From an uncultured Thermoleophilia bacterium (GTDB lineage: Bacteria > Actinomycetota > Thermoleophilia > UBA2241): a stretch of 64,000 nt of DNA. This document shows, one piece after another, positions 30,141-40,171 of this stretch. The stretch spans positions 3,871-67,870 of the forward strand of contig CAVPJG010000001.1 in the NCBI GenBank assembly GCA_963705205.1, in the 5' to 3' direction. How positions within the stretch are numbered: position 1 is the stretch's first letter; every line of letters begins with the position of its first letter. Below the pieces are notes generated by a model that did not search any database, was not told the DNA's origin, and saw nothing but the letters and a program-made list of their open reading frames with translations. The position numbers and the translations under genes were made by a program.

Positions 30141-30518
30141 CTACGCCGCCGCCTCGACCGTCGCGACGGCGGCGTTGATCTGCGCGACGACCGCAGCGGG
30201 ATCGTCCACCTCGAGCACCAGGCGGTCAAACGCCTCGTCCACGAGATCGATCACGACCGCCTTCTCGGGATGGTGGACATCCCAGAACTCGTGGCGGCCG
30301 TGCACCAGCATCGAGCCGGCGGCGACGGCGTAGCCGAGCAGCAGGTCGGTGCGGCCCGCCCCGAGCCAGGGGCCGTGCCGGTGGACATAGGGGTCCAGCC
30401 GCGCGCCCGCGACGTGCGCGAGCGGTACGATCATGCGCCTGCGGGTCGTCCAGACGATGTCGAGTCCGTGCAGCGTCACCCTCAGGCGCCCCTGATCTAT
30501 GTCGATGTGGGTGTTCAT
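30141..30518 (-). CDS. Hypothetical protein (small beta-rich, bacterial PH-like)
   Basis: Fills the gap between convergent genes; typical codon bias; EFWDVH.PEKAVVIDL...RLVLEVDDP. Confidence 0.7.
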   Translation of the reverse strand: MNTHIDIDQGRLRVTLHGLDIVWTTRRRMIVPLAHVAGARLDPYVHRHGPWLGAGRTDLLLGYAVAAGSMLVHGRHEFWDVHHPEKAVVIDLVDEAFDRLVLEVDDPAAVVAQINAAVATVEAAA

Positions 30519-30621: not shown

Positions 30622-32077
30622 TCACGCCGGCAGCAGCACGGTGAACACGGAGCCCTGGCCGACGACGCTGGTCGCCTCGAGGCGGCCGCCGGCGCGCTCG
30701 ACCAACCGCTTCACGATGGAGAGCCCCAGCCCGTTACCCTCGAGCTCGCGCGTCTCGTCACGCTTCTCGCGGAAGAACTCGTCCCAGAGCCGCGCCAGGT
30801 TCTCCTCCTTGATGCCGATGCCGGTGTCGGCCACGTCCAGCCGCAGCCATCCGTCCTCCACCGCGACGCGCACCGTGACGGTGCCACCGTCGCGGTTGTA
30901 CTTGACGGCGTTACCGACAAGGTTGCTGAGCACGAGGCGGAGGTCATCGGGCCGGATGAGGGCGGGCGGCAGGCCCGCGGCGAGGTCCGTGGTCACCGTC
31001 ACGCCGCGCTGCGCGCCCCCTTCGCCGGCGAGCTCCACGACCTCGTGCAGTACGGGCGCGAGCGGCACCAGCTCGGGCTCCTCACCCTCGGGCGCCTGCT
31101 CGCTGCGAGCAAGCGTGAGCAGGTCGCGGATCAGCTCGACCAAGTTATCGATGCGGTGGTCGGCGCGGGCGATCATCGGCAGGTACGGGCCGAGGTCCTC
31201 GCCGAGGCTCTTGTCGGTGACCACCTCGAGGAGGCCCTTGATGGACCCGAGCGGGCTCTTGAGCTCGTGCACCATCATACGGATGAACTTCTGCTTCTCC
31301 ATGGCGAGGCGCCGCACCTCGCTGATGTCGCTGAGGGTGAGGATGCGGCCGCGCTCCTGCCCGCCTTCGTCGCGGAAGGTGACGATACTCGCCATGTACG
31401 TCCGTTCATCGAGCTCGAGCTGGCGCACGGTGCGGTCCTTGGCCGGCGCGGCCAGCTGCTCGCAGAGCGGCGCCAGGGCGCCGCCGCCGAGCAAGTCCTG
31501 CGCCGGCCGCATGAGCACCTCATCCTCTCCCAGCCCGAGCAGCTCGAGCATGGGCGGGTTGGCGAGCGCGACGTCGCCGGCCCGGTTCACGACGAGCACG
31601 GCGTCCCGCAGGGAGCTCACCAGCGAGTGCGTCTGCGTCTTCTCCTCGGCGAGCGCGAGCAGGCTCGCCTCGTGCTCCGCGCGCAGGCGCTCCGCCTCCG
31701 TGCGCGCCTGCTTGTGGCGCAGCAGCGTCGCCACCACGCCCTCGAGGTCGTCGGGGCTGAACGGCTTGGGGAGGAAGAAGTCCACGCCCTGGCGCGTGGC
31801 GGCGATGGCGGTGTCGATGTTGGCGTAGGCCGTGATCATGCAGACCATGGCGTCGCAGCCGCGCTGTTTCATGGTCTGCAGCAGGCTGAGGCCGTCGGTG
31901 TCGGGCAGCCGGTAGTCGAGGAGGGCGACGTCGTAGCTGCGCTCGCCGAGGGCCCGCGAGCGCGCCGGCGCCGTCGCCGGCCTCCCCCACCTCGTAGCCC
32001 TCCATCTCGAGGATCGTGCGGATGCCGCTGCGCACACCGTACTCGTCGTCGACGATGAGGATGCTGCCCTCGGCCAT
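30622..32077 (-). CDS. Hybrid sensor kinase REC-PAS-HisKA-HATPase, interrupted by a +1 frameshift near 31953-31955
   Basis: ILIVDDE in one frame; LLDYRLPD...FLPKPF, PAS (DAVLVVN...ANP), HELKSPL, NLVGNAVKY, DTGIGI, GNGLGL in the next; length 1456 = 3n+1. Confidence 0.9.
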
Positions 32078-32101: not shown

Positions 32102-32530
32102 TCAGACGGCGGCCGGATCGCCGGCCGTTGCCGCGGCTCCGGCGAGTTCCTCGATGACGGCGAGCACCTGCGCGCCGGTCACCGGCTTGTCCAGGAACCG
32201 GGCGAGCCGGGACCACTCGCGCAGCCCCGTGGCCTCGCCGTCGAACCGCGTGCCGGTCTCGGCGGCGACGCCGCTGAGCATGACGAGCGGGATGTGGCCG
32301 AGCCGCTCGTCCTTGCCGATGCGGTACCCGAGCCGGAAGCCGTCGTCGACGTGCTCCATCATCAGGTCCAGGAAGATGATCGCCGGGGTCTCGGTCTCCA
32401 GGAGCACCAGCGCCGCGTCGGGGGACTCGGCGATGAGCACGCGGTAGCCGCGCGCCTCCAGGTACACCTGCTTGCTCTCGAGGAAGTCCCGGTCGTCGTC
32501 CACGAACAGGACAGTCGCCTGGGTCGTCAT
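32102..32530 (-). CDS. Single-domain response regulator
   Basis: LFVDDD, FLDLMM (phospho-Asp), MLSG, FLDKPV; no output domain. Confidence 0.93.
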   Translation of the reverse strand: MTTQATVLFVDDDRDFLESKQVYLEARGYRVLIAESPDAALVLLETETPAIIFLDLMMEHVDDGFRLGYRIGKDERLGHIPLVMLSGVAAETGTRFDGEATGLREWSRLARFLDKPVTGAQVLAVIEELAGAAATAGDPAAV

Positions 32531-34584
32531 GCTGTCGCTCCCTTGTCGTCGATCAGCGCGGTCTGCCCGCCGACGTGGGTGCTGGGGAGCTCCACGTGGA
32601 AGGTCGTGCCGCGATCGGTCTCGGTGTCGAACCAGATGGTGCCGTTGTGCATCTTCACGATGCCGTAGCTGATGGGCAGGCCGAGGCCCGTGCCCTTGCC
32701 GATGCTCTTGGTGGTGAAGAAGGGCTGGAACACCTTGTCGCGAGCGCTCTGGGGGATGCCGGCGCCCTCGTCACTCACGGCGATGTGGATGCGCCCGCTG
32801 CCCTCGACCTCGTGGGCGCTCACGCGCACCGTGCCGTCACGGTCCTCCATCGCCTCGACCCCGTTCTTGACCAGGTTCACCAGCACCTGGGTCATCTGGT
32901 CGCGGTCGAGGTCGGCGCGCAGGCCGGGCTCCACGTCGACGACGAGGTCGACGACGTGGCCGTTGGGCTGCACCGTGGCGGCGGCGGAGTCGACGGCCTG
33001 CTGGAGCACGTCGTGTACGTCCACGCTGCCGAGGTGCACGCGGCTCTGCCGCGCGAAGTCGAGCAGGTTGCCGACGATCTTCTTGCAGCGCTCGCTCTCC
33101 TCCGCGACCAGCTTGAGGTCGTGATCGAGGTCATCGCGGTCCTGGAGCTTCTTCCCCAGGATGTGCGTGTACAGCAGGATCGTGCTGAGCGGGTTGTTGA
33201 GCTCATGCGCGACGCCGGCCGCCATCTGGCCCATGCTCGCCAGCTTCTCCGTGTTGATGATGTGCCGATGCACGTCGCGCATCTCGCTCCACGGGACGTT
33301 GAGCTCGATGCAGACGCGCTCGGCCTGGTCGATCATGAACGGCAGGCACATGGCGTCCTCGGCCATGCCGGAGTACACGGCGACCGCCTTGGCGCGACAG
33401 GTGGGATAGCCGCAGGCGCCGCAGTTGAGCTCGTCCTCCGGGAAGAACTTGTTGGTGCGCGCGAGGATCTCGCGGATCTCGTCCTCGGTCGGCTCCTCCA
33501 GGCGCTGGTCGTCCGGCGTGTAGACGCGGCTCAGGTCGAGACCGGGGAAGCGGGCGGCCAGAGGGTCGTCGAGCTCGCTGCGCACCTCCACGGCCGCCTC
33601 GGCCTCGCGGCGCCGGCACTCGGCCACGTACTCTCCGACGCGCCGCTTGCGGAGCAGGCCGGGCTCGGAGGAGCTGATGCCCGGCCCGCAGTAGCAGCCG
33701 CGGCACATGAGGGCCTCCACGAGCAGGGTCTGACCCGTGTCGGCCTCGCTCAGGCTGTCCAGCACCTCGACGGTCTCGTCGTGGCCGCTCACGACGAGGA
33801 CGTCGGGGTCGAGCATGCCTCGGTCCATGCCGGCGCTCTCGAGCAGGCCGCCGGGGAGCGGGAACACCCGCGCCCGGCCGGCAGCCGGCTCGTCCCACGC
33901 GGCCTCCGAGGCCGTCGCCGGATCCGCTCCTCGCGCCGCCAGCAGGCGGTGCGCCTCCTGCAGCGTCAGGACCTCATCGATCACGGGGTCCAGCAGCGGG
34001 TCCCGTGCCTCGGCCTTCTTGGCCACGCACGGGCCCACGAAGACGCAGCGCACGTCCTCTCCGTAGAGCTCCTTGACGGCCATCGCGGTCGCGATCATCG
34101 GAGAGACGATGGGCACGAGCCTGTCGGTCAGCTCGGGGTGGTACTTGCGCACGTACTCGGCGACCGCCGGACACGCGGTGGCGATGTGCACGCCCTGCGG
34201 GTTCTCGTGCAGGTACTCGGCGTAGGCCCGGCTCACCAGGTCGGCGCCCTGGGCGACCTCCACGACGTAGTCGAACCCGGCCGCTCTGAAGGCGCCGACG
34301 AGCTGCCCGGCGCGCACGCTGAAGCCCGCGGGGAAGGACGGCGCGAGCAGGGCGGCCACGGGCGCGTCCTCCTCGAGCAACCACGTCGCGCGCTCCAGCC
34401 CGCTCAGGTAGGACTTGGCGTTCTGGGAGCAGACGAGGGTGCAGTTGCCGCAGGCGATGCAGCGCCCGTCGACGACGAACGCCTGTCCGTCCTCGATGCG
34501 GATCGCCTCCGCCGGGCAGTCACGCACACACGTGTAGCACCGGCGGCAGTTCTGCTTGATCGTGGTGATGATCGCTCCGCTCAT
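32527..34584 (-). CDS. Sensory-type [FeFe]-hydrogenase fused to a histidine kinase (group C1-like)
   Basis: 2[4Fe-4S] (CRRCYTCVRDCP, CIACGNCTLVC); H-domain APSF, ATACP, GPCVAKKAE, EALMCRGCYCGPG; Cx2Cx4Cx16C FeS domain; AHELNNPL H-box, NLVKN, DEGAGI, FFTTK, GTGLGL. Confidence 0.93.
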   Translation of the reverse strand: MSGAIITTIKQNCRRCYTCVRDCPAEAIRIEDGQAFVVDGRCIACGNCTLVCSQNAKSYLSGLERATWLLEEDAPVAALLAPSFPAGFSVRAGQLVGAFRAAGFDYVVEVAQGADLVSRAYAEYLHENPQGVHIATACPAVAEYVRKYHPELTDRLVPIVSPMIATAMAVKELYGEDVRCVFVGPCVAKKAEARDPLLDPVIDEVLTLQEAHRLLAARGADPATASEAAWDEPAAGRARVFPLPGGLLESAGMDRGMLDPDVLVVSGHDETVEVLDSLSEADTGQTLLVEALMCRGCYCGPGISSSEPGLLRKRRVGEYVAECRRREAEAAVEVRSELDDPLAARFPGLDLSRVYTPDDQRLEEPTEDEIREILARTNKFFPEDELNCGACGYPTCRAKAVAVYSGMAEDAMCLPFMIDQAERVCIELNVPWSEMRDVHRHIINTEKLASMGQMAAGVAHELNNPLSTILLYTHILGKKLQDRDDLDHDLKLVAEESERCKKIVGNLLDFARQSRVHLGSVDVHDVLQQAVDSAAATVQPNGHVVDLVVDVEPGLRADLDRDQMTQVLVNLVKNGVEAMEDRDGTVRVSAHEVEGSGRIHIAVSDEGAGIPQSARDKVFQPFFTTKSIGKGTGLGLPISYGIVKMHNGTIWFDTETDRGTTFHVELPSTHVGGQTALIDDKGATA

Positions 34585-34594
34585 GTGACCTGCC

Positions 34595-36313
34595 TCAGAC
34601 TGCCGCGGCTTTGGGGCTGCGGTCGGTATAGCCGCGGTGCAGGAGCCGGTGGCTGACCTCTCCGAGCGGACGCCCGAGCAGGTCCTCGTACAGCGCCTGC
34701 ACCTCGGCGTTCTCGTGAGAGCGGCGGGTGCGGGAGCGCCTGTCCACTTCGTAGAGGCGCTCCAGCCGCTCCTTGACCGCCTGCGTGTCGGTGGCGTAGG
34801 GCTGCCCGCCACCGCCGATGCAGCCGCCCGGGCAACTCATGACTTCGACGAAGTGCAGAGCGGCATCGGGTGCCAGGAGCCCGTCCACGGACTCCTTGAC
34901 CCGCCCGAGGCCGTTGACCACGGCCAGGTTGAGCCGCGCGTCGCCGGCGGTGACGGTGAAGCGGCGCACACCCTCGGCGCCGCGGGCCTCGGCGACCTTG
35001 GGGCCGCCCTCGAGCTCCTGGCCCGCCACCAGCATGTACGCGGTGCGCACGGCCGCCTCCATCACGCCGCCGCTGCCGGCGAACAGGCGCCCGGCGCCGG
35101 TCGCCTCGGCGAACGGCGCGTCGAGCGGCGCCGTCTCGGAGAAGCGCGCGAAGTCCACGCCGAAGCGGCCCCAGAGGTGCTCCAGCTCGCGCGTCGTGAG
35201 CACGTAGTCCACGTCGCTGAGGTCCTGCGCCTCGAACTTCTTGGCCGTGCACGGCATGAGCGAGACGACCACCAGGCGCTTGCCGCCGAGGTCGGTGTGC
35301 TTCGGGTAGATCTCGCGGATCAGCGCGCCGGCCATCTGCTGCGGGCTCTTGCACGTGCTCAGATGCGGGATCAAGTCGGGACGGTGCGTCTCGACGAAGT
35401 TCACCCAGGCTGGGGAGCAGCTGGTGAACATGGGCAGCACGCCGCCGTTCTGGATGCGGTCGAGCAGCTCGGAGCCCTCTTCCATGATGGTGAGGTCGGC
35501 GGCGAAGCTGGTGTCGAAGACGGCGTCGAAGCCGACACGCTTCAGCGCGGCGGCAAGTCGCTCGAGCATGACGCGGACACCCTCGCTCTTGCTGTGACCC
35601 TCGAGCAGGGTCGCCGGCACCGCCGGAGCGACCTGTGCCACGACGACGGCGCCGGGGTCGGCCAGCGCGTTCACGACCTCGTCCACCTGGTCGCGCTCGA
35701 CGATCGCGCCCGTCGGGCACACGCGGGCGCACTGACCGCAGTAGACGCACTCGCTCACGTTGAGGCCGATGGCGAAGCCGGGTGCGATCTTCGTCTTGAA
35801 CCCGCGCCCGGCGAAGTCGATCGCGCCCACGCCCTGCACGTCGTGGCAGGTGGTGACGCAGCGGCCGCAGAGCACGCACTTGTTGGGGTCGCGCCAGAGC
35901 GCCGGGGAGCTGATGTCCACCGGGTGCTGTTTCACAGCGCCGACGTAGCGACGCTGGCGGGCGCCGACATCCGCGGCCAGCGTCGCCAGCTCGCAGTCGC
36001 CGCCGCGCACGCAGCTCAGGCAGTCCTGCGGATGGCTAGCGATGAGCAGTTCCATGATCGCGCGCCGCGCCTTGAGCACGCGCGGCGTGTGCGTGTGCAC
36101 AGCCATACCCTCCGTCACCTCGAGCGTGCAGCTGGTGAGCAGACGCGGGCTGCCCTCGACCTCGACGACGCACATGCGGCAGGAGGCCGCCGGGCTCGGG
36201 GCCCAATCCAGGGAGCACAGGTGCGGGATGTCGACGCCGGCACGCTGCGCGGCCTTGAGCACGGTCTCGCCGCGCGCGGCCTCGATCTCTTTACCGTTGA
36301 TGGTCAGATTCAT
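34595..36313 (-). CDS. hydA: [FeFe]-hydrogenase catalytic subunit (group A3, HydA)
   Basis: N-terminal [2Fe-2S], His-ligated cluster (HPQDCLSC...C), 2[4Fe-4S]; P1 FTSCSPAW, P2 MPCTAKKFE, P3 EVMSCPGGCIGGGGQP; C-terminal small-subunit motif SHEN. Real start is MNLTING at 36313. Confidence 0.96.
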   Translation of the reverse strand: MNLTINGKEIEAARGETVLKAAQRAGVDIPHLCSLDWAPSPAASCRMCVVEVEGSPRLLTSCTLEVTEGMAVHTHTPRVLKARRAIMELLIASHPQDCLSCVRGGDCELATLAADVGARQRRYVGAVKQHPVDISSPALWRDPNKCVLCGRCVTTCHDVQGVGAIDFAGRGFKTKIAPGFAIGLNVSECVYCGQCARVCPTGAIVERDQVDEVVNALADPGAVVVAQVAPAVPATLLEGHSKSEGVRVMLERLAAALKRVGFDAVFDTSFAADLTIMEEGSELLDRIQNGGVLPMFTSCSPAWVNFVETHRPDLIPHLSTCKSPQQMAGALIREIYPKHTDLGGKRLVVVSLMPCTAKKFEAQDLSDVDYVLTTRELEHLWGRFGVDFARFSETAPLDAPFAEATGAGRLFAGSGGVMEAAVRTAYMLVAGQELEGGPKVAEARGAEGVRRFTVTAGDARLNLAVVNGLGRVKESVDGLLAPDAALHFVEVMSCPGGCIGGGGQPYATDTQAVKERLERLYEVDRRSRTRRSHENAEVQALYEDLLGRPLGEVSHRLLHRGYTDRSPKAAAV

Positions 36314-36324
36314 GGTCGTTCCTC

Positions 36325-38346
<2,022 letters not shown>

Positions 38347-38347
38347 G

Positions 38348-38848
38348 TCAGGCCGCGGCCTCGTCCTCGGCGTCCTTCTGGTCCGCTGCCTCGACTTCGT
38401 CCAGCAGCGCGTCGAGCCTCTCGCTGGTGAGGTGGCCGTAGAACTCGCCGTCCAGCCTGATCACGGGGGCGATCGAGCAGGCGCCCAGGCACGCGACGCT
38501 GATGACGGTGTAGCGGCCGTCGGCCGAGTTGCCGTCGTCCCGCAGCTTGAGCCGGCGCTTCAGGTGCTGGGCGAGCGCGAGGCTCTGCTTGACGTGACAC
38601 GCCGTTCCCCGGCAGAGCTCGATCACGTGCTCGCCCAGTGGAGCGAAGCGGAACTGGTTGTAGAACGTCGCGACGCCGTAGATGCGGCTGACCGGTGTCT
38701 CCAGGGCCTCGGCCACGAGGACCATGGCCTCGGTGGAGAGAAACCCCTCCTCCGCCTGGATCTCCTGCAGCAGCGGGATCATCTGCTCGCGCGTGAGCTG
38801 CTCCCTGCGGCCGGCGATGATGGCTTCGGCGGCGGTCACGGCCGTCAC
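38348..38848 (-). CDS. hydC: [2Fe-2S] hydrogenase subunit (NuoE-like, HydC)
   Basis: IPLLQEIQ, YGVATFYNQF, CRGTAC, ACLGACSIAP; GTG start overlaps the upstream stop (GTGA). Confidence 0.94.
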   Translation of the reverse strand: MTAVTAAEAIIAGRREQLTREQMIPLLQEIQAEEGFLSTEAMVLVAEALETPVSRIYGVATFYNQFRFAPLGEHVIELCRGTACHVKQSLALAQHLKRRLKLRDDGNSADGRYTVISVACLGACSIAPVIRLDGEFYGHLTSERLDALLDEVEAADQKDAEDEAAA

Positions 38849-39267
38849 GCGCCCTTCGTGCCGGCCTCGTCCGCGTCCGCCAGCAGCTCGGCGATCGCGG
38901 CGGCCAGATCGGCCAGCTTGACCGGCTTCTCCAGGAACTTGGCCGCCGGCCACTCCCGGTACATCATCGGCTCGAAGACGTGGGTCTTGGTGTCGAGCTC
39001 CTTGGTGAACCCGCTCATGATGATGATGGGGATGTCCGCCGTCTCGGGGTCTTCGCGCAGCTTGAAGGCCACGTTGAACCCGTCGGTGTCGTGATCCATC
39101 ATGATGTCCAGCAGGATGAGGTCCGGCCGCCTGGCCGCGAGGCGCTCCCGCCCCTCCACACCACTGTGGGCGGTGTCGACCTCGTAGCCGCGCGCCTCCA
39201 GGAACGCCTTGACGCCCGCGACGAGGTCGCGGTCGTCGTCCACCATCAGGATCCGCTTCGCCTTCAT
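38845..39267 (-). CDS. Single-domain response regulator
   Basis: ILMVDDD, LLDIMM, IMSG, FLEKPV; GAGGAGGAG SD; no output domain. Confidence 0.93.
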   Translation of the reverse strand: MKAKRILMVDDDRDLVAGVKAFLEARGYEVDTAHSGVEGRERLAARRPDLILLDIMMDHDTDGFNVAFKLREDPETADIPIIIMSGFTKELDTKTHVFEPMMYREWPAAKFLEKPVKLADLAAAIAELLADADEAGTKGA

Positions 39268-39320: not shown

Positions 39321-39353
39321 TAGTTATCGTCTTCACAGTGAACCCATTCACAG
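39321..39353. promoter_or_regulatory. Two overlapping Rex operator-like sites
   Basis: CAGTGAA-CCCA-TTCACAG (39336-39353) and a weaker TAGTTAT-CGTC-TTCACAG (39321-39338) versus the known consensus TTGTGAA-N4-TTCACAA; AT-rich patch. Confidence 0.75.
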
Positions 39354-39398: not shown

Positions 39399-40130
39399 TC
39401 ACTCCGTCATCCCCCGCGCCGGCTCACCCGGCTCGGCCGACGACGCCTGTGCGTCGGCCTCGCTGCGCGCCAGGAACGACAGCATCTCGAGCTTGGAGGT
39501 GATGTCCGTCTCCTCGACGAAGCACCCCGCCGGAGCGCTGACGCGCTTGGGCACGAAGTTGAGGACCGCGTGCACACCGGCGGCGCAGACCCGGTCGACG
39601 AGCGTCTGCAGCCCCTCGGGCCGGGACGCGAGGATCGCCATGTGCACGTCGAACTCGCGCAGCACTGTCTCCAGCTGGTCGACGTGGTAGCAGCGGCGGC
39701 CGGCGAGCACGCGGCCCACCTTCTCGCTGTCGACATCGAAGGCCACGGCGATGTGGAAGCCGCGCTCCTCGAACCCGCGGTAGGAAAGGAGCGCGCGGCC
39801 CAGGTCGCCGACGCCGAACAGGGCGACACTCTGGCTCTCGTCGGTGCCGAGGATACGGCTGATGGTGCGGCCCATCTGGTACACGTTGTAGCCGCGGGAG
39901 ATGTTGCCGAAGGTGCCGAAGCTGGCGAGGTCGCGGCGGAGCTGGGCCGGCGTGACGCTGACCAGCTCGGCGAGGTCGTGGGAGTGGATGTTCTCGATCC
40001 CGTCGCGGTCGAGCTCCTCCAGCACCTTGCGATAGATGCTCAGCCGCTCCACGGTCTGCAGCGAGACCCGCTTGGCCGGCCGCTTCGGCGGGGTCGTGGC
40101 GTCAAAGCCGGCCTGTCCACTGGTGATCAA
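39399..40130 (-). CDS. rex: Redox-sensing transcriptional repressor Rex
   Basis: TVERLSIY, PAQLRRDLASFG...GYNV wHTH; Rossmann GVGDLGRAL..Y; LNFVP. Start moved to TTG at 40130 (GGGAGG SD). Confidence 0.95.
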   Translation of the reverse strand: MITSGQAGFDATTPPKRPAKRVSLQTVERLSIYRKVLEELDRDGIENIHSHDLAELVSVTPAQLRRDLASFGTFGNISRGYNVYQMGRTISRILGTDESQSVALFGVGDLGRALLSYRGFEERGFHIAVAFDVDSEKVGRVLAGRRCYHVDQLETVLREFDVHMAILASRPEGLQTLVDRVCAAGVHAVLNFVPKRVSAPAGCFVEETDITSKLEMLSFLARSEADAQASSAEPGEPARGMTE

Positions 40131-40153: not shown

Positions 40154-40171
40154 CTGTGATTGTATTCACAG
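40154..40171. promoter_or_regulatory. Rex operator upstream of rex (autoregulation)
   Basis: CTGTGAT-TGTA-TTCACAG, near-perfect palindrome with N4 spacer. Confidence 0.8.

Follow-up and report, generated by a model that had tools for sequence, protein, structure and literature searches.

A histidine kinase with a predicted sensory [FeFe]-hydrogenase input module beside hydCBA in a Thermoleophilia bacterium

How sensory [FeFe]-hydrogenases relay their signal is debated, and the characterized examples, TmHydS of Thermotoga maritima and TamHydS of Thermoanaerobacter mathranii, come without an assayable output. Here we describe a gene for a 685-residue protein in which a hydrogenase-like domain (H-domain) is joined directly to a histidine kinase. 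It lies in a 64,000-nucleotide (nt) stretch of contig CAVPJG010000001.1 (assembly GCA_963705205.1) from an uncultured Thermoleophilia bacterium; the whole stretch is called the window, and all positions refer to it. The gene follows hydA, which encodes the catalytic subunit of an HydABC hydrogenase, and we refer to its product as the sensor kinase. The family to which it belongs probably reports H2 or redox state beside hydrogen-producing enzymes.

Several related systems have been described. TmHydS carries the C299A/M353G-type residues A131 and G177 and a PAS domain, binds an H-cluster and turns over slowly (PMC10055695); it also carries a Cx2Cx4Cx16C domain (PMC8163306). An earlier note on this DNA, made from the sequence alone, had listed the Ala, the Gly, the PAS domain and the Cx2Cx4Cx16C domain as traits of TmHydS, and the two papers report all four. 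Enzymology papers define the corresponding sensory group C by its PAS domain (PMC10055695, PMC13104023, PMC11216029), and the term 'histidine kinase' does not occur in a 2022 review (PMC8924675). The HydDB classification, in contrast, lists a group C1 'histidine kinase-linked', whose members 'may sense H2 and regulate via histidine kinases' (PMC5037454). A study of Hydrogenedentota notes HATPase_c domains in C1 sequences, places kinase-bearing forms in C3 as well as in C1, and names a C3 protein 'BfuT' in which a histidine-kinase domain replaces the PAS domain and whose gene lies downstream of bfuA (PMC11406978). BfuT carriers are Hydrogenedentota, Caldithrix abyssi and some Bacteroidota, with sub-type V BfuABC clusters, and in part of the Bacteroidota clusters a further bfuT copy precedes bfuC (PMC11406978). 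The kind itself has therefore already been published, as HydDB C1 (PMC5037454) and as kinase-bearing BfuT (PMC11406978). The sensor kinase is a member of a large, widespread and already named kind, and its surprise is modest. What is new here is the mark of a shortened P3 motif (Cx2C) on its clade, a heptad-quantized distance between its last cluster cysteine and the phospho-accepting histidine, and the candidate Rex boxes of the operon.

Domain architecture and the link to the kinase

The sensor kinase gene comprises the following features, with the evidence in brackets:

32527..34584, minus strand: sensor histidine kinase gene, 685 residues (open reading frame and translation; Pfam)
34417..34557, minus strand: N-terminal 2x[4Fe-4S] ferredoxin-like domain, residues 10-56 (Pfam Fer4_9/Fer4_10)
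33682..34359, minus strand: H-domain PF02906 (Fe_hyd_lg_C), residues 76-301 (Pfam, E 1.2e-40)
33346..33423, minus strand: C-terminal Cx2Cx4Cx16C [4Fe-4S] motif, PF04060 (Pfam; regular expression)
33208..33345, minus strand: linker from the last cluster cysteine to the phospho-histidine, residues 414-459 (structure model; heptad lengths of relatives)
33046..33234, minus strand: HisKA, the dimerization and histidine-phosphotransfer (DHp) domain, residues 451-513 (Pfam, E 3.2e-15)
32578..32907, minus strand: HATPase_c catalytic domain, residues 560-669 (Pfam, E 5.1e-26; fold match to ZraS)

The open reading frame (ORF) runs from an ATG at 34584 to a stop codon at 32527-32529 in a window of about 70% G+C, and its translation is matched identically in a public protein collection. 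The ATG lies 10 nt past the HydA stop codon and is preceded at 10-13 nt by GAGG. Residue conservation was scored in an alignment of 42 sequences (33-91% identity). The cysteines of the N-terminal ferredoxin-like domain are residues 13, 16, 19, 23, 42, 45, 48 and 52, and C23, C42, C45 and C48 are invariant. The H-domain scores 140 bits against a PF02906 cut-off of 22.1. In the C-terminal iron-sulfur (FeS) domain, where the PF04060 match covers residues 386-415, Cys388, Cys391, Cys396 and Cys413 are all invariant. The phospho-acceptor His460, within the motif HELNNP (codon 33205-33207), is kept in at least 90% of the sequences, and N574, D605, G607, G609, F622, G633 and G635 of the catalytic domain are invariant; the protein has the H-box histidine and the conserved N, G1, F and G2 boxes of a HisKA-type kinase.

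No PAS domain was found in the sensor kinase by Pfam at E 0.01, and the gap between the FeS domain and HisKA is only 35 residues. No NCBIfam model scored over its cut-off, the best being AtoS (186 against 646 bits) and FeFe_hydrog_B1 (179 against 450). The arrangement that the earlier note had read from the sequence, an H-domain followed by Cx2Cx4Cx16C and HisKA with no PAS domain, is thus borne out by the ORF, by Pfam and by the structural model below. The core of sensory group C (TmHydS-type) is present, namely the N-terminal 2x[4Fe-4S] domain, an H-domain lacking C299 (CpI numbering) and the C-terminal Cx2Cx4Cx16C motif, and the PAS domain of that group is lacking. We predict that the sensor kinase is cytoplasmic and consider it fairly probable that a sensory-type [FeFe]-hydrogenase module of low turnover serves as its input.

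An AlphaFold2 (AF2) model built from the 42-sequence alignment has a mean predicted local distance difference test score (pLDDT) of 87. Past the P3 motif of the H-domain, helices 309-333, 341-345 and 367-375 are followed by the FeS domain with its helix 396-404. A further helix, 414-427, begins one residue past the last ligand, Cys413. The path from the FeS domain to the DHp domain is then broken by a proline-containing turn of four residues (428-431, the NVPW region) and continues as a 48-residue helix (432-479) that bears His460; DHp helix 484-512 and an alpha/beta catalytic domain complete the chain. Residues 430-500 are modeled at lower confidence (pLDDT 51-79), as expected of a monomer model of a dimeric DHp domain. 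Foldseek matches the model up to about residue 430 to CpI, DdHydAB and HydABC chains (E ~1e-18) and to CbA5H, and the C-terminus to ZraS as the best match in the Protein Data Bank (E 1.7e-32). A hidden PAS fold was considered and ruled out, because the model has no beta-sheet between residues 300 and 519 and the gap between FeS domain and HisKA is so short. Structure prediction, which the earlier note had named as a check, therefore gives a PAS-free helical link from the FeS domain into the DHp domain.

The length of this link was compared among relatives. Our search for related loci confirmed 581 relatives, and the locus counts in this text come from the 35 best, with the denominator of each gene-order count being those with enough flanking sequence. 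Representative relatives (sampled as described below) whose H-box is NtrB-like place the phospho-histidine 33 (3 proteins), 40 (4), 47 (16), 48 (1), 49 (1), 54 (3) or 68 (1) residues from the last cluster cysteine, so that 27 of 29 fall on the seven-spaced series 33/40/47/54/68. One of the sixteen at distance 47, P0265, has a cysteine at the phospho-histidine position. Five representatives with an EnvZ-like H-box have distances of 24, 24, 27, 34 and 38. An NtrB-like H-box is present in 34 of the 35 best loci, at distances of 40 (8), 47 (25) and 54 (1), all 34 on the heptad series; the remaining locus encodes a sigma-54 fusion. Heptad quantization is an established signature of coiled-coil signaling helices, and the quantized linker therefore argues that the FeS and DHp domains would be coupled in a fixed register. 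The direct wiring of the FeS domain to the kinase that the earlier note had proposed is supported both by these distances and by the position of Cys413, one residue before the helix that leads toward the DHp domain.

Active-site motifs and the Cx2C clade

Active-site positions are given in CpI numbering, taken from HMMER alignments to CpI, HydABC chains and other solved [FeFe]-hydrogenases, with which MAFFT agrees. The C299A and S319A variant chains among the matched structures corroborate the register. The three motifs are:

34168..34182, minus strand: P1, ATACP, residues 135-139 (HMMER alignments; clade frequencies)
34009..34035, minus strand: P2, GPCVAKKAE, residues 184-192 (HMMER and MAFFT; clade frequencies)
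33688..33717, minus strand: P3, EALMCRGCYC, residues 290-299 (HMMER and MAFFT)

In P1, Ala137 falls on the proton-relay residue C299 and Cys138 on the ligand C300. P2 places Gly184 on M353, Cys186 on C355, Lys189 on K358 and Glu192 on E361. In P3, Leu292 takes the place of M497, and Cys294 and Cys297 are the counterparts of C499 and C503, spaced as Cx2C rather than Cx3C: the sequence C-R-G-C has one residue fewer than the CxxxC of the canonical motif (ExMxCxxGCxxG). The four H-cluster cysteines (C300, C355, C499 and C503) are present as Cys138, Cys186, Cys294 and Cys297, of which the last three are invariant and Cys138 is kept in at least 90% of the 42 sequences. The proton pathway, in contrast, is replaced throughout, with Tyr121 for E279, Tyr124 for E282, a gap at R286 and Val157 for S319, and the group A catalytic residues C299, E279, E282, R286, S319, M353 and M497 are all altered. 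Both alignment methods reproduce the P1, P2 and P3 substitutions and the Cx2C spacing that the earlier note had reported. The extra P3 cysteine it had pointed out, Cys299, does exist; it is not conserved, however, occurring in 63 of the 120 closest clusters and being absent beyond that subfamily, and we rejected it as a functional ligand.

All of these 120 best clusters (64-100% identity, the named members mostly Thermoleophilia metagenome-assembled genomes, MAGs) carry PF02906, PF04060, HisKA and HATPase_c, and Cx2C, the P2 motif, the FeS motif and HELNNP are likewise found in 120 of 120. For a wider sample, an HMMER scan with residues 1-440 yielded, at E<=1e-30, 870 proteins that each represent a cluster formed at 50% identity. 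Pfam was run on the best 150 apart from 11 short fragments and P0034, the query's own cluster, which left 138. A kinase core directly follows within ~70 residues past the FeS motif in at least 34 of the 138, where direct means that no PAS or GAF domain was found at thresholds of 1e-7 and 1e-9. The kinase lies behind PAS, GAF or a long insert in 8 more. Other outputs are a sigma-54 AAA+ activator (16, of which 3 via PAS), GGDEF (3, one with HD-GYP) and a methyl-accepting chemotaxis protein (MCP) signaling domain (2). The rest are proteins of ~560-650 residues with PAS or with no detected output, and fragments. The rarity implied by the earlier note does not hold: the PAS-free kinase fusion is the commonest enzymatic output of the sensor clade and is named both in HydDB and in a 2024 survey.

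The P3 spacing was scored from an alignment of 146 rows. Cx2C is found in 34 of 34 direct kinase fusions, 3/3 GGDEF, 2/2 MCP and 14/16 sigma-54 proteins, and in 7 of the 8 with the kinase behind PAS or another insert. Among short proteins 17 of 82 have Cx2C, 64 have Cx3C and 1 has another spacing. A FastTree phylogeny of the H-domain and FeS region, which carries Shimodaira-Hasegawa-like (SH-like, local) support only and whose root is not established, divides the rows into two sides with an SH-like support of 100%. The 65 rows of one side are all Cx3C and comprise short PAS-type proteins and the HydA outgroup, which sits on a long branch within that side; the other has 81 rows, 77 of them Cx2C, and contains every enzymatic-output fusion. 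The Cx2C/Cx3C label costs three changes on this tree. Cx2C marks the whole output-fused clade. P0231 is, like P0265 above, a degenerate family member, with Gly at the C300 equivalent and an altered P3.

Residues that line the [2Fe] pocket are conserved in the Cx2C clade on par with the Cx3C/PAS-type clade. Counts in the former (n=77) are A230 62, P231 72, S232 67, P324 72, K358 67 (and 4 Arg), E361 75 and C300 76; in the latter (n=67) they are A230 64, P231 66, S232 66, P324 67, K358 65, E361 67 and C300 67. C355, C499 and C503 occur in every row of both clades. The [2Fe]-pocket residues would have no obvious role without a [2Fe] site, and their conservation therefore supports retention of the H-cluster. 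We infer from this indirect support that the sensor kinase probably binds an H-cluster.

A number of points weigh against this reading. Against the canonical CxxxC, which one survey treats as required for the catalytic centre (PMC11216029), the P3 loop is a residue short, and P1-P3 are described as hardly found in C1 sequences in the Hydrogenedentota study (PMC11406978). Our literature searches found no biochemical study of a kinase-fused Cx2C member. None of the maturases HydE, HydF and HydG was found over cut-off in the genome, which comprises 2.6 Mb in 15 contigs, is 76.6% complete and holds just two H-domain genes. In addition, the hydEFG genes of related cassettes are accounted for by HydA alone.

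The same P3 and maturase observations, the doubt over H-cluster motifs in kinase-bearing C1 sequences (PMC11406978) and the replacement of every proton-pathway residue would suit a sensor of the ferredoxin pool or a general FeS redox sensor, with an H-domain that, as in Nar1-like proteins, would hold no more than its [4Fe-4S] cluster and lack the [2Fe] subsite, and a kinase that responds to how far the N- or C-terminal clusters are reduced. We regard such a sensor as unlikely, since A230, P231, S232, P324 and K358, which in CpI touch the [2Fe] subsite alone, stay conserved across the 77 Cx2C representatives and the gene adjoins HydA in 25 of 30 loci. We did not accept the lack of HydEFG as evidence against an H-cluster, because the MAG is incomplete and relatives have HydG. 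PF02906 occurs in 61 of 201 sampled genomes of the class, concentrated in two families (33/35 and 27/35), and HydG is over cut-off in 34 of 41 genomes of the host family; the absence of maturases here is therefore most simply explained by incompleteness. HydG also lies within the locus in 14 of 29 related loci. Genes like hydE/G(/F) follow the second kinase of the cassette in L018, L031, L033, L049 and L051, and in L051 Pfam confirmed HydF and radical-SAM/BATS domains.

In a broader proposal, the Cx2C clade would be a distinct H-domain lineage, with the shortened P3 forming an altered or [2Fe]-free signaling site that acts as a universal plug-in input. In the hydCBA cassette the bifurcating hydrogenase would then be controlled, post-translationally or by a kinase cascade, by the sensor kinase, a stand-alone receiver and a receiver-kinase that have no DNA-binding partner, with Rex the only transcriptional regulator. 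The C-terminal cluster domain may, on this proposal, clamp the register-locked coiled coil that drives kinases, sigma-54 AAA+ activators, GGDEF domains and MCPs with no PAS relay. We offer it tentatively and think it rather unlikely as a whole.

Operon, related loci and regulators

The genes around the sensor kinase run on the minus strand in the order rex, receiver, hydC, hydB, hydA, sensor kinase, receiver and REC-PAS-HisKA-HATPase kinase (HK2; REC, receiver domain):

40155..40170, strand not assigned: perfect Rex-box palindrome TGTGATTGTATTCACA, overlapping a TACAAT -10 element
39399..40130, minus strand: Rex redox-sensing repressor (NCBIfam NF003995, 202 bits against a cut-off of 126)
39337..39352, strand not assigned: Rex-box-like palindrome, one mismatch to TGTGA-N6-TCACA, between rex and receiver-hydCBA
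38845..39266, minus strand: second stand-alone receiver (Pfam; ATG at 39266 after GAGGAGG)
38348..38848, minus strand: HydC, NuoE-like (Pfam; likely GTG start at 38848 overlaps the receiver stop, GTGA)
36325..38346, minus strand: HydB, NuoF-like flavoprotein subunit (Pfam; NCBIfam)
34595..36313, minus strand: HydA catalytic subunit, P1 TSCSP (Pfam; NCBIfam NF040763)
32102..32530, minus strand: stand-alone receiver, 142 residues (ORF, Pfam; ATG overlaps the sensor stop, ATGA)
30622..32077, minus strand: HK2 (Pfam; read in two frames)

A cassette of hydCBA, sensor kinase, REC and REC-kinase, in that order, is found again in many phyla. The 35 best loci are labeled Planctomycetota, Ignavibacteriota, Bacteroidota, Elusimicrobiota, Verrucomicrobiota, Desulfobacterota, Spirochaetota, Marinimicrobia and Myxococcota, with one Kuenenia MAG. 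HydA is encoded immediately upstream of the sensor in 25 of 30 loci, a REC gene directly follows the sensor in 26 of 33, and a REC-kinase follows in 30/33. This second kinase is REC-HisKA-HATPase in L031, L033, L049 and L051 and REC-PAS-HK (HK, histidine kinase) in L017. L044 has two stand-alone receiver genes in tandem. In two Bacteroidales loci (L037, 3996-5222, and L048, 3810-5036; opposite strand) a second sensory H-domain gene lies upstream of hydC, besides the kinase-fused one that follows hydA. Beyond near-kin, the closest relative is L017, labeled as a Polyangiaceae MAG, in which the sensor is 63%, Rex 69% and HydABC 65-73% identical and the gene order is the same as in the window; this is unexpectedly close for another phylum, and the likeness may therefore reflect transfer or a mis-binned contig.

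The tight conservation of the hydCBA-sensor order, in which the sensor start codon follows the HydA stop at 10 nt, favors a further explanation, that the protein is a regulatory 'BfuT' subunit attached to HydABC. It would read electron load rather than free H2 and act on the enzyme, or signal, from inside the complex. BfuT is called the T subunit in PMC11406978, and the cassette encodes no DNA-binding regulator. HydA, however, is missing from the locus in L025 and L045 and ~7 kb away in L022 and L024, and the same module is fused to sigma-54, GGDEF and MCP outputs that act away from the enzyme. We therefore judge an HydABC-bound subunit to be decidedly unlikely.

HydA itself scores 695 bits against NF040763 ('NADH-dependent [FeFe] hydrogenase, group A6'), under its cut-off of 765. 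Its P1 motif TSCSP keeps the relay cysteine and has Ser at the position of C300, a ligand of the [4Fe-4S]H cluster. Among 35 HydA matches in related cassettes, P1 is TSCSP in 19, TSCCP in 12 and something else in 4. The same Ser substitution has been published for T. tengcongensis HydA and I. album IALB_0257 (PMC3362086) and for Melainabacteria (PMC3787301). TSCSP, with which the earlier note had compared the sensor motif, was rejected as a canonical reference because this Ser in place of C300 makes it a variant (PMC3362086). In HydB, a CCxxC-bearing 'NuoF prefix' domain at the N-terminus (NF040902, 52 bits; cut-off 45) is combined with a 2x[4Fe-4S] ferredoxin domain at the C-terminus.

Two paralogous stand-alone receivers of ~140 residues bracket hydCBA and the sensor. 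The downstream one, whose gene overlaps the sensor stop codon, is a putative phosphotransfer partner; Pfam covers only its first ~82 profile positions, which suggests an atypical alpha4-beta5 region. HK2 has an apparent frameshift near 31950-31965, at a GGGCCC run, with the receiver N-terminus read from an ATG at 32077; its homologue in L017 is intact (485 residues). The break is either an assembly indel or a real pseudogene. Directly past HK2 lies a 125-residue ORF (30141-30518, minus strand) with a coding-like G+C of 0.91 at third codon positions and no Pfam or NCBIfam match.

The rex gene likely starts at a TTG at 40130, preceded by GGGAGG. Upstream of it lies a promoter, TTGACA-N17-TACAAT, whose -10 element is overlapped by the perfect palindrome. 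We take TGTGA-N6-TCACA to be the Rex operator consensus; the window holds 3 matches to this pattern where 0.70 would be expected, a number reached by 4 of 100 shuffles. These sites are candidate Rex boxes of the operon. A weaker Rex-like palindrome lies at the sensor start codon (34584-34599).

Proposed mechanism and comparison with known systems

We propose that the H-domain takes its H-cluster from HydEFG and equilibrates with H2, while electrons would enter or leave via the N-terminal clusters. The state of the H-domain and FeS modules would be relayed through the C-terminal FeS domain, whose last ligand cysteine sits at the head of the linker helix, and the register-locked helical linker would carry it into the DHp domain and set the autophosphorylation of His460. 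The acceptor of the phosphoryl group would be the translationally coupled receiver protein, HK2 through its receiver domain, or both. The sensor kinase and Rex, a sensor of NADH/NAD+ with operator-like sites before the operon, would together tune the adjacent HydABC. The identity of the signal as H2, the sense in which the kinase is controlled and the partners in phosphotransfer are all inferred. Taken whole, this model of an H2- or redox-sensing kinase with hydrogenase-type input is in our judgment the probable one.

To the points on P3 and maturation given above must be added that no DNA-binding response regulator was seen in the cassette, that HK2 is interrupted, and that two results on TamHydS bear on the relay. 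Its C-terminal cluster stays oxidized under 1 atm H2, and its H2-induced change in secondary structure is independent of that cluster (PMC13104023). This latest work on TamHydS argues against the favored model of a C-terminal-cluster redox switch (PMC13104023). Such a switch of the kinase is structurally plausible in the sensor kinase, and it is weakened by these data. TamHydS is the only enzyme in which the response of the C-terminal cluster was tested (PMC13104023), and its cluster potential may differ from that here, because Asn387 and Met412 replace the Asp residues that flank the first and last C-terminal-cluster cysteines in TamHydS; Asn387 and Met412 are conserved in 62/77 and 69/77 members of the Cx2C clade. 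The C-terminal cluster would act either by a redox change or as a structural clamp. We favor a relay in which the state of the H-domain passes via a rigid FeS domain into the registered helix.

The same clusters could in principle respond to damage: loss or poisoning of the H-cluster or the C-terminal cluster by O2, CO or NO would switch the kinase and so protect an oxygen-sensitive hydrogenase. Kinases that sense O2 through an FeS cluster exist, NreB being one. Sensory hydrogenases also have altered CO and O2 reactivity (PMC8163306). The protein has, however, no sequence feature specific to such a role, and H2/redox homeostasis accounts better for its conserved association with hydABC, Rex and hydEFG, so that we give a damage sensor very little credence.

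The fusion of sensor and kinase offers a one-protein readout, both for H2 sensing and for whether the cluster or the conformation of the H-domain drives the output. The heptad linker and the Cx2C signature are concrete mutational handles. Survey filters that demand CxxxC would miss the whole Cx2C clade.

Among known systems, BfuT and HydDB C1 are like the sensor kinase in joining a sensory H-domain to a kinase and in lying directly downstream of an A3-type catalytic subunit, and the two-bfuT clusters of Bacteroidota match the arrangement in L037 and L048. BfuT is known from genome surveys alone, and its equation with the sensor kinase follows from architecture and synteny; unlike the BfuT carriers, the host here belongs to a high-GC Thermoleophilia lineage. 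The regulatory [NiFe]-hydrogenase HoxBC with its kinase HoxJ (HydDB 2b) is a parallel case in which a low-activity hydrogenase serves as an H2 sensor driving a histidine kinase, which in turn governs hydrogenase genes (PMC5037454, PMC8163306). It differs in having an unrelated metal site and fold, separate proteins and a PAS-like domain in HoxJ.

TmHydS (group C, M2f) shares the N-terminal 2x[4Fe-4S] domain, the C299-to-Ala and M353-to-Gly changes and the C-terminal Cx2Cx4Cx16C motif, and is likewise encoded with a bifurcating hydrogenase (PMC10055695, PMC8163306). It ends in a PAS domain and has no kinase, whereas the sensor kinase has a kinase and no PAS domain; M497 is Ser in TmHydS and Leu here, and F417 is Tyr there and Phe here. 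TmHydS was compared by its published description only, and the ~570-residue PAS-type representatives form the separate Cx3C clade. TamHydS (group D, M2e) resembles the sensor kinase in lacking a PAS domain, in its N- and C-terminal cluster domains and in Leu at M497; its gene adjoins those of a bifurcating hydrogenase and has a kinase-like gene at its flank (PMC8163306). In TamHydS, however, the kinase is unfused, M353 is Ser, and the flanking Asp residues of the C-terminal cluster are D378 and D403 (PMC13104023).

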